Positions 12,501 through 15,500 of a stretch of 64,000 bases of DNA are shown here, one piece after another; the stretch's first letter is position 1, and each line of letters opens with the position of its first letter. The position numbers and the translations under genes are program-made. Location: IMG/VR virus record IMGVR_UViG_3300015263_000719, positions 1-64,000 of that record. One strand, written 5' to 3'. The notes beneath the pieces were generated by a model. The model was not told where the DNA came from. It was given only the letters and a program-made list of their open reading frames with translations, and did no database searches. This DNA comes from a virus.

Positions 12501-15500
12501 AAGTCTGCTTCTGAAATATCTCCAAGTCTTTTACCTTTACTGAATGTCCATTCAGCAAGAGCAGCTTTGACAGGATTTTCAGCAGTATAGTAATTTCCAT
12601 ATGCTACCTGATAACCTGATGCTGTTTTATATGTACTGAACATTCTTGCAAAAAGTGAATCAATATCAAAGTCAGCTCCTGATAAAGCAATAATTTCATA
12701 AGGTAGCATGATAGAGTTTCCATAGTATGCAGGAAGAGTATCTACAATCTTTAGATTTACCATAGAGTGTTTATCCTGTGTAGGAATCCTTACTCCCATT
12801 TGTATAGCAAGATCTACAGGTATTTCATCACCAAGTTTTAATCCAAATTTTCTAAGAGCTTTTTCAGATACTATACATTCAGATAAATAAACATCATTAC
12901 CAAATCTGTCTTTAGATTTAACAGCATGTCTTAATCTGCTTGTAATAGCTTTCTTTACAGTTCTTACATCTCTTACTACTTTACCAACTCTAGCCCATTT
13001 AGTTTGTCCCTTTTCAGTATATTCAACTACATCATGATCACCTGCTTCAATAGCAGCAATTGCATCAGCTTCTGAAAGACTACCAAGAAACTCTCTTGCA
13101 ACCTCCATACCTTCATCTGAAACAAGAGTATACTTTCTACCAGGAGTTTTACTTTTGAATACTCTGTTGGATACAAAAGCTAAATACATTGATTCAAACT
13201 TATATCTGATTGCTGGATAGTTACCATCAAATATTGGTTGTCCTTGTGCATTAGTTGTAAAGAGTTCAGTTACCCATAGATCATCAGTAATAAGTCCATT
13301 TTCAAATGCTTTATATAATTCATTATAAGCTTCTGCAGTAAGTTTACCATCAGGAGCAAATCTGAATATTGTATCTTTAAGATCAACATGACCTCTTCTA
13401 ACTCTTTCAGCAAGTAATTCATTATACTTGGTAACAAGTTCACCAATAGGTAATGATTTACCTTGCCATTCAACAACAGTATCTGGATTCTGTTCAGACC
13501 AGATAAGTTGCATTAGCTGAGTACCATGAGGTATTTTATTCTTAAAACCATCAGTATTAACCTGTTCTCTTAACCATTCACCATCTACTTCCTGTACAAC
13601 ATCACTATCAATGTCAAATTTAGCAGTCTTTAAAGCTGAATCATAAATAAGTAAATCATAATTATTATAATTCATATCATTCAACTTGAGATGTCTGCTA
13701 AGTCTACCTACTCTGGCAACAAACATTTTATTGACTGCTTTTGCTGCTGTTTGAATAGCTGTAACATCACCTGATTTTTTAGCTACATCAAGAGCATCAT
13801 ATCTTTTGTTCATTTCAGCAATCTGAGCAGCTTTATCTCCTTCAAAATTCTTTCTGAATTCAGGATTAATAGTTGAGGTTTCAGCTCTTGTAAGAGTATG
13901 TAGAGATGTTTTATCATACCATGTCATATCTCTACCTACAATCTTTCTATCATGTAGATTAGCATTGAATTTATCAAGTACATCAACTTCATCTTCAGTT
14001 AATCTTTCCACAAGATCAAGACCTCTGGCAATTCTTTGTAGTAAAGGTTTAACTCTTTCCTGATATTTACCATTTGGTTTAAGGTATTGATCTATATAAA
14101 GATTCATATTACCATAGTTCTGAGCATCAGTTCTGTCAATAGGTTTATTGTATTGAACTAAGTGTCTTAACTTTTCAATACTTTCAAGAGCCTGTTCAAC
14201 TGAAGACTGTAGTTTAAATCTAATCTTACCTGTTGAACTTGGACCAGCAGCAATCAATCCACCATTTCTTTTGGTGAAGTCATCAAAGTCTTTATAGTTA
14301 AGAGCAAGATCACCATGTAATAATTGATTTGCAGAAGCAACATTAATAGTATGGTTGATAAAGAACTTAGCCATTTCCTGCATAGATACCTGTTCACCTT
14401 TCTTACCAAATGCTCTTGGTAAAAGATTGTTTACATATATTGCTTCAGTAGCAGTAGTCTCTGGTTTACCCAATGCTTTTTGAGCTGCATATAATCCTTC
14501 AATAAATGCTTTATCAATAGGAGTATTTGTATTATGAGTGAAGTTCTCATATTCTAAAAGCTTTTTAGCATGAGCACCATTTTTATTCTGTACAAAACTT
14601 GCAACTACAAGTTCCTGCATTAAAGCAAGATTATTAGCTCCTTTAAGAATTTCTACATCTACTTTAGGTGCATTCTTTTTACCTTCTACAAAATCATCAA
14701 AACCTCTTTCATAAACTTCTTCATCAAACTGTCCTGTCTTATTAGTTTGATAAGCATGTTCAACTGAACCATACTTTCTTGTTTCACCATCTGTTGATGT
14801 CCACTCAAACTCTCTTGGAGCAAGATTAGAAAGTATCCTGGTGTTAAGAGGATTCTCTCTAGCTGACCAATATACATTAATAGTTTTACCTTGCTTAACT
14901 GTTCTCTTTGTAACAGCACCAAAAGGTACAAGTACAGTATCAATGTATTCCTGTATCTGAGGAAGATAGATGTCATCAAAACTATCTTTTATTTCAGTTT
15001 CATATTGCTCAATTGATTCACCAGCAAGTGCTGCCTGCATCATTCTTTGAGCAAGAGGATGTTCTTTATATCTGAAGAACATTAATCCTCTGGCATTATA
15101 CTTACCAGTAGTCAATCCATCTGCAATCATTTTAGCATTGGTAACTTTACCATTGACAATATCCATTGCATCATGAGTATTTGATTTGCCATGATATGCA
15201 TTTGAAATAAAGTCAGTTTTTGTACCATTCTTAATATCTTCTATTTCAGAAACTATCTTCTTGATTCTGTCAAACTCTTGTTTAAACAGATTATAGAATG
15301 CAGTTCTAGAATACTCTGTAAGTCTTGCATCAGGAGTACCCATATCAGTTACTACTCTATCTTCAACAGGCATTCTTATAAATACCTGTGTTGATTTCTC
15401 AGAGTTATTAAGTAAGAAATATCTAAGTTGTACTTTCTTACCATCTGGACCAATAACATCATCATTAGCAGAACCTGAATCATCATATAGAGCTAATTTA

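Follow-up and report, generated by a model that had tools for sequence, protein, structure and literature searches.

A divergent NADAR-superfamily domain within the virion-type RNA polymerase polyprotein of a crAss-like phage

In the human gut, the dominant phages are Crassvirales, whose giant RNA polymerase (RNAP) polyproteins are largely unannotated. One protein of this kind is encoded within positions 1 to 64,000 of the IMG/VR virus record IMGVR_UViG_3300015263_000719 (79.8 kb, estimated 72% complete; these 64,000 nucleotides are referred to as the window), and about 140 of its residues, lying just ahead of the polymerase core, had been likened from sequence motifs to NADAR enzymes, which remove ADP-ribose (ADPr) from modified substrates. 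The locus raises the question of what a putative ADP-ribose eraser is, and what it may do, inside an RNAP chain. The best explanation of the segment is an intact NADAR-superfamily domain, divergent in sequence and belonging to the phage type (gp30.3/AdfN-like, with a last-strand His), and it is carried by the following protein.

9503-19018, minus strand: P0001, a giant open reading frame (ORF) of 3171 aa taken from the ORF list and its translation; crAss-like virion-type RNAP polyprotein carrying the NADAR cassette
14468-14887, minus strand: NADAR-fold domain, P0001 residues 1378-1517, delimited by profiles, an AlphaFold model, and structure comparison

The NADAR domain and its active site

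The plus strand is full of stops across 14465-14890, and the feature lies on the minus strand. All of the motifs quoted in the original prediction were recovered within P0001 residues 1378-1517, where they span window positions 14534-14881, including INVYWS (residues 1380-1385), ILSNLAPREF (1395-1404), YGSVEHAYQTNK (1416-1427), LMQELVVASFVQN (1466-1478), and LLEYENFTH (1487-1495). The hidden Markov model envelope of the domain runs from residue 1371 to 1524 (window 14447-14908).

Comparisons of the individual sequence with curated families gave weak signals. The excised segment matched the Pfam NADAR family PF08719 (E 0.0087, 16.8 bits) without reaching the gathering cut-off of 35.1, and a Pfam scan of the whole of P0001 returned no NADAR match. 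No match to PF08010, the family of T4 gp30.3, was found at E<=10, phmmer with the segment alone against PDB sequences returned nothing useful, and phrog_1017 (function not annotated) matched the segment at E 1.5e-5. Homology of the segment extends far beyond chance, with 189 cluster representatives at E<=1e-3 and 34 at E<=1e-30 in a search of 1.84 billion proteins. When ten short stand-alone relatives were scanned, PF08719 was among the top matches of all ten over the same profile region (E 7e-8 to 0.1; top score 33.4 bits, for P0154), and five of the ten matched PF08010 weakly (E 3e-4 to 0.06, under the cut-off of 36). A 32-row profile of the domain and its relatives (A1) had one meaningful match among PDB sequences, E. 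coli YbiA (2B3W, E 3.9e-4), and hhalign assigned probabilities of 90.1% to YbiA and 88.6% (E 2.6e-6) to T4 gp30.3.

The AlphaFold model of the domain (predicted local distance difference test [pLDDT], 87.4; predicted template modeling score, 0.81) was compared with solved structures, a comparison with YbiA and DarG1 having been proposed at the outset, and it has the NADAR fold. An exhaustive VIA-align comparison with 48,161 chains returned 8BAU (Z 11.3), 2B3W (Z 10.3), and 8BAT (Z 8.1), which are exactly the three solved NADAR structures, over 131-135 residues, with the next match at Z 3.5. The same three structures were the top three in Foldseek, and matches in the BFVD viral library were mostly NADAR-annotated proteins and pieces of giant proteins from the crAss-like phages cr272_1, cr131_1, and cr130_1. 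The model loses confidence at its two ends (pLDDT 57 and 52), in keeping with the linker-like flanks that had been described for this segment. The fold assignment is secure because of the family profiles and the structure comparison, and the NADAR-like domain first proposed from motifs is thus supported by fold, profile, and catalytic residues.

The catalytic set of NADARs comprises a Glu and a Lys seven residues apart (E43/K50 in PnNADAR, E36/K43 in T4 AdfN; PMC11543638, PMC11825919), the Glu contacting the distal ribose (PMC11543638, PMC11825919) and the Lys a phosphate (PMC11543638), and a His in the last strand is diagnostic of phage-type NADARs (PMC11125620, PMC11543638). Each was located in P0001 using an alignment that includes YbiA and T4 gp30.3 (A2), and conservation was counted over 223 domain copies.

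14759-14761, minus strand: Glu1420 in SVEHAYQ, corresponding to PnNADAR E43, YbiA E48, and AdfN E36; invariant in A2 and present in 207 of 208 copies
14738-14740, minus strand: Lys1427, seven residues past Glu1420, corresponding to PnNADAR K50, YbiA K55, and AdfN K43; invariant in A2 and present in 207 of 210 copies
14534-14539, minus strand: Thr1494-His1495 at the end of the last beta strand (FTH); His invariant in A2 and present in 197 of 200 copies, Thr in 196 of 201

His1495 lies at the end of strand 128-130 of the AlphaFold model. Conservation reaches 90% or more at about 20 other positions, where the window copy always has the majority residue. The motif D..W(G), which contacts ADP-ribose in PnNADAR (D130, W133), was not found in the window copy, which has NTNTPID instead; the W is kept only in a more distant subgroup of the 223-copy family, and the motif is absent from the subgroup of the window. 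The original prediction had considered this motif degenerate and warned that activity might be altered. The degeneracy held up, and the worry over activity is answered by T4 AdfN, an active enzyme that also lacks D..WG in the A2 alignment.

These substitutions bear on whether the domain is an enzyme at all. The domain might be a NADAR fold that has lost catalysis and persists as a structural module of the polyprotein, as one that binds ADP-ribose or nucleotides, or as one that serves packaging. Such a dead domain would be compatible with the change of the last-strand Glu to Thr and the loss of D..WG in the window's subgroup, as well as with a Pfam score far under threshold. However, the Glu, Lys, His, and about 20 other positions are near-invariant over the 223 copies amid fast-evolving proteins, a pattern typical of an active site, and T4 AdfN is active with the same substitutions (PMC11825919); a dead domain is considered highly improbable. 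The domain most aptly counts as a new, divergent branch within the phage-type NADARs.

The RNA polymerase carrier and the placement of the cassette

Four features of P0001 define the polymerase around the NADAR domain.

14930-18013, minus strand: conserved block 1, P0001 residues 336-1363, 25% identical to residues 1638-2653 of the related protein P0087 (E 3e-63)
10640-14446, minus strand: conserved block 2, P0001 residues 1525-2793, which holds the RNAP core, 26% identical to P0087 residues 2662-3902 (E 3e-99)
11669-13321, minus strand: RNAP catalytic core segment, P0001 residues 1900-2450, homologous to phi14:2 gp66 residues 1189-1679
12659-12673, minus strand: DFDID, the RNAP metal-binding motif, P0001 residues 2116-2120, found by regular expression (motif definition, 10.1101/2020.03.07.982082, PMC7886860)

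A profile built from P0001 residues 1900-2450 and 20 homologous segments from NADAR-bearing viral contigs (A3) matched PDB 6VR4, the ‘DNA-dependent RNA polymerase’ phi14:2 gp66, over gp66 residues 1189-1679 (E 1e-93, 318.5 bits), and the G, D, F, D, and D columns of the DFDID region are invariant in A3. The full P0001 sequence alone, searched with phmmer against PDB sequences, returned nothing useful, and the link to RNAP therefore runs through the profile of its relatives. AlphaFold modeled the core (residues 1900-2450, 21-row alignment) poorly (pLDDT 47.3); that model was not used to search for folds, and the profile match to 6VR4 took its place. P0001 matched ‘putative RNA polymerase’ genes of crAss-like phages by tblastn. 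Its core segment was matched in 24 of 41 NADAR-bearing viral contigs. Carrier and contig counts here and below were drawn from NADAR-bearing sets only; a portal-protein query of viral contigs, made to obtain a NADAR-negative control set, found no relatives. On these sequence matches, P0001 is identified as a phi14:2 gp66-type RNAP polyprotein of a crAss-like phage, with the DFDID two-barrel core of that type. In the NADAR-bearing IMG/VR contigs G007 and G010 (behind L013 and L017), the open frames that hold the RNAP core extend to 6647 and 7104 aa, unusually long even among crAss-like polyproteins.

The domain had been proposed to be an insertion in the polymerase chain, and it does occupy a gap that the nearest relatives lack. 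In P0087, the counterparts of P0001 residues 336-1363 and 1525-2793 lie directly next to each other (2653 to 2662), and in P0120 they are 37 aa apart, compared to 161 aa in P0001, where the gap is the cassette. P0087 has a NADAR copy of its own near the C-terminus, and the copy of P0120 lies upstream of block 1. The chains of 6VR4 had no match to the A1 profile at E<=10, indicating that phi14:2 gp66 is without NADAR. Among NADAR-bearing proteins of at least 1500 aa, the motif [GAS][AGS]D[FY]DxD occurs in the same chain in 75 of 134, with the cassette downstream of DFDxD in 59 of these 75 (mostly ~800-970 aa off) and upstream in 16. The P0001 cassette lies 743 aa upstream of DFDID, a placement it has in common only with P0064 among the 75.

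Proteins with flanks of 21-27% identity have cassettes of 40-56% identity, and the closest copies of the P0001 cassette occur in proteins with more distant RNAP parts; the cassette thus behaves as an exchangeable, strongly constrained module. No shift in guanine-cytosine content and no flanking repeats were found around it, and nothing marks a recent insertion, an intein, or an intron. Other domains fused in the carriers include superfamily 1 (SF1) helicases, an AlkB-like oxygenase, and a SLOG-type domain, which suggests that the carriers draw on a pool of swappable nucleic-acid repair or counter-defense modules. In P0024/P0090, P0056/P0079, P0057, P0061, and others, the fused domains are PF13532 (AlkB-like 2-oxoglutarate-Fe(II) oxygenase), PF12694, or an SF1/PIF1-type helicase, in varying order.

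The subfamily also occurs beyond giant proteins. A tblastn search of 50,697 phage records with the window domain returned only Bacillus phage AgentSmith, the crAss-like carriers surfacing when relatives were used as queries, and the copy from the crAss-like phage cr126_1 was linked by tblastn to ‘NADAR family’ proteins of Streptomyces phages. In Bacillus phage vB_BspM_AgentSmith (L001, MW749006.1, 46094-46807), a 237-aa protein has a C-terminal copy of this NADAR subfamily (41-45% identity); it is annotated as a ‘putative toprim domain-containing protein’, its NADAR having been missed in the public annotation.

P0001 is the second in a run of co-directional giant genes (1885, 3171, and 1384 aa), which lies downstream of the portal, major head, and virion structural genes, all on the same strand, placing P0001 at the end of the structural operon. 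Its start is a GTG (window 19015-19018) overlapping the stop of the upstream 1384-aa ORF, and in a six-frame search its frame was open over 3184 aa, 13 codons past the GTG. Block 1 contains a zincin-like HEAFH upstream of the cassette (P0001 residues 412-416, window 17771-17785, minus strand, found by regular expression), a motif that could have a putative role in polyprotein processing; no family match was obtained for the HEAFH region of P0001.

Candidate substrates and the neighboring ART-PolyVal gene

The protein phi14:2 gp66 is packaged in the virion and drives early transcription (10.1101/2020.03.07.982082; PMC7886860). By homology and gene position, P0001 would likewise be packed in the virion and would enter the cell with the DNA, and because the polyprotein would arrive in this manner, the NADAR module would be on hand from the first moment of infection, with no need for expression. 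Like AdfN, the module would release ADP-ribose by cleaving its N-glycosidic bond to a nucleobase, most probably at guanine-N2, in single-stranded or transcribed phage DNA. The outcome would be that DarT1-like or other nucleic-acid ADP-ribosyltransferase (ART) defenses are neutralized and that early transcription and replication are unblocked. A pre-packaged ADP-ribosyl-nucleobase N-glycohydrolase that clears ADP-ribose from phage nucleic acid, analogous to AdfN in its action against DarT1, is considered the most likely function of this domain, somewhat more probable than not.

Several observations weigh against such a function. Catalysis by this NADAR subfamily is argued by analogy with AdfN and other NADARs, packaging and ejection of P0001 are argued from homology and gene position, and a DarT1-type defense in the host is a putative target. 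The Pfam score of the segment lies under the gathering cut-off, and with the last-strand Glu replaced by Thr and D..W lost, the substrate or the chemistry may differ. The domain has no DarT1-linked extension for binding single-stranded DNA (ssDNA), as it starts at the first strand of the core and its match to 8BAT begins at chain residue 48. Further, T4 gp30.3 itself, although active in vitro, failed to relieve the toxicity of DarT1 in one in vivo assay (PMC11125620).

The altered D..W contact and the attachment to a polymerase could also point to a different substrate, namely soluble or RNA-linked ADP-ribose species rather than DNA adducts. Candidates would be NAD-derived immune signals of the cyclic ADPr type, ADPr breakdown products, NAD-capped RNA, or ADP-ribosylated RNA, and the role would be to quench a signal or to clean transcripts as they leave the polymerase. 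A physical link to RNAP would suit an RNA substrate, and YbiA offers a case of small-molecule action (PMC11543638). However, every NADAR subtype tested in vitro, including the phage type, hydrolyzes guanosine-ADPr on DNA (PMC11125620), the closest characterized kin, AdfN, works on DNA in vivo (PMC11825919), and a few injected enzyme copies would be a poor drain for a diffusible signal; this explanation is considered unlikely. A riboflavin-intermediate glycosidase role of the YbiA kind was also considered and was rejected, being implausible in a module carried on an injected polymerase.

A second ADP-ribose gene adjoins P0001, and it introduces the possibility of a writer acting beside the eraser.

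8900-9280, minus strand: ART-PolyVal domain, residues 68-194 of the adjacent downstream 1885-aa protein (ORF 3824-9481); PF18760, E 6.4e-9, 37.1 bits, cut-off 31.2

In a six-frame search, PF18760 scored 43.9 bits in the window's own record. The 1885-aa protein also has a match to a PHROG ‘exonuclease’ at residues 586-770, and it looks like a polyvalent cargo protein.

With an ART-PolyVal domain above its Pfam cut-off in the adjoining co-directional gene, the two domains might act in the manner of a toxin-antitoxin pair, the ART modifying host targets once injected and the RNAP-borne NADAR shielding phage templates or proteins from it. The motifs of the neighboring ART look R-S/T-E-like, and the guanine-modifying toxins pierisin and ScARP belong to the R-S/T-E class of ARTs. 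ART-PolyVal and the NADAR cassette are joined within one chain in P0034 and P0019, Pfam annotations being the sole basis for this same-chain frequency; a local jackhmmer search from the neighbor's ART domain did not recover the ART-PolyVal of either protein. The ART-YbiA toxin-antitoxin pair YarT-YbiA offers a precedent (PMC11125620). However, of 41 NADAR-bearing viral contigs with a length of at least 40 kb, just 3 had PF18760, as did only 1 of the 17 that are at least 90% complete. The search behind these counts does detect PF18760 in the window's own record, and the cassette is thus usually kept without an ART-PolyVal writer. The general view of ART-PolyVal domains is also that they act on host proteins, as T4 Alt does (PMC5512222). 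No Macro domain (PF01661) was found in the 42 NADAR-bearing records, with controls working. A writer and eraser pair carries a small probability.

The eraser clearing phage nucleic acid could take more specific forms. Tethered to the injected RNAP, it might work as a transcription-coupled de-ADP-ribosylase that takes off base adducts at sites where the polymerase stalls on the entering genome. In this phage it might, in addition, form a pre-packaged writer/eraser pair with the neighboring ART-PolyVal, which would mark host nucleic acid while the NADAR kept phage templates free of adducts; this elaboration is speculative and is given little credence.

The best-conserved accessory module of the giant RNAP proteins of crAss-like phages is identified here as a phage-type NADAR. 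This suggests that nucleic-acid ADP-ribosylation, by DarT-like systems, is a major recurrent pressure on Crassvirales, and that the counter-measure may be delivered as a protein alongside the DNA rather than expressed later. The known sequence space of NADARs would be broadened as well by a subfamily that has Thr-His in its last strand and lacks D..WG.

Comparison with known systems

The best structural matches of the domain are YbiA (2B3W) and the Phytophthora NADAR (8BAU), with which it has the motifs SNxA...E(H)xxQxxK and F.QN in common. Those proteins differ in having a last-strand Glu (Glu-His in YbiA) and D..WG, where the window domain has Thr-His and NTNTPID. YbiA is also a cellular stand-alone protein, and it acts on riboflavin intermediates and small molecules (PMC11543638).

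The original prediction had drawn its comparison with DarG1, and this was sustained in part. DarG1 (BC4488-type, 8BAT) has the same superfamily fold (Z 8.1), and the chemistry proposed for the window domain by analogy, removal of ADP-ribose from DNA guanine, is that of DarG1. In other respects the likeness is loose, as DarG1 has a last-strand Asp and a basic N-terminal beta-beta-alpha extension that binds ssDNA, whereas the window domain has Thr-His and no extension. The gene next to DarG1 is DarT1, whereas the ART beside P0001 is ART-PolyVal and not DarT; the DarT profile PF14487 had no match in the 79.8-kb record, though the control genomes gave no match either.

Polyvalent proteins (PMC5512222) resemble P0001 in being giant, multi-domain, and probably virion-delivered, and P0001 combines zincin-like HExxH, RNAP, and NADAR modules. 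The ART-PolyVal of its neighbor and the helicase, oxygenase, and SLOG domains of its relatives fit the polyvalent theme too; NADAR, YbiA, and DUF1768 are unmentioned in that paper. A 2022 survey described viral NADARs as ‘typically standalone’ outside of RNA-virus polyproteins (PMC9503650), and no paper discussing a NADAR-RNAP fusion was found. NADAR enzymes and counter-defense by phage NADARs are known already, as is the presence of NADAR and RNAP in one public annotation, that of cr126_1. This RefSeq protein (YP_010111697.1, 2402 aa), labeled as a ‘DUF1768 domain-containing protein’, has DFDID at residue 1509 together with NADAR/DUF1768. Its cassette is N-terminal and of the W-containing subgroup, while that of P0001 is internal.

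T4 gp30.3/AdfN (anti-DarT factor NADAR), a His-type NADAR that strips ADP-ribose from DNA and defeats DarTG1 (PMC11825919), is a better analog of the window domain than DarG1. Both are phage-encoded, and both have a minimal NADAR core without an N-terminal DNA-binding extension, a Glu/Lys spacing of seven, a last-strand His, no D..WG, and a similar C-terminal helix motif (AEFIDVL vs KAFIEGL). The identity between the two is ~18%, and the residue before the His is Lys in AdfN and Thr in the window. AdfN is a stand-alone early protein of 152 aa, whereas the window domain is embedded in an RNAP polyprotein of 3171 aa and, by analogy with phi14:2 gp66, is probably pre-packaged.

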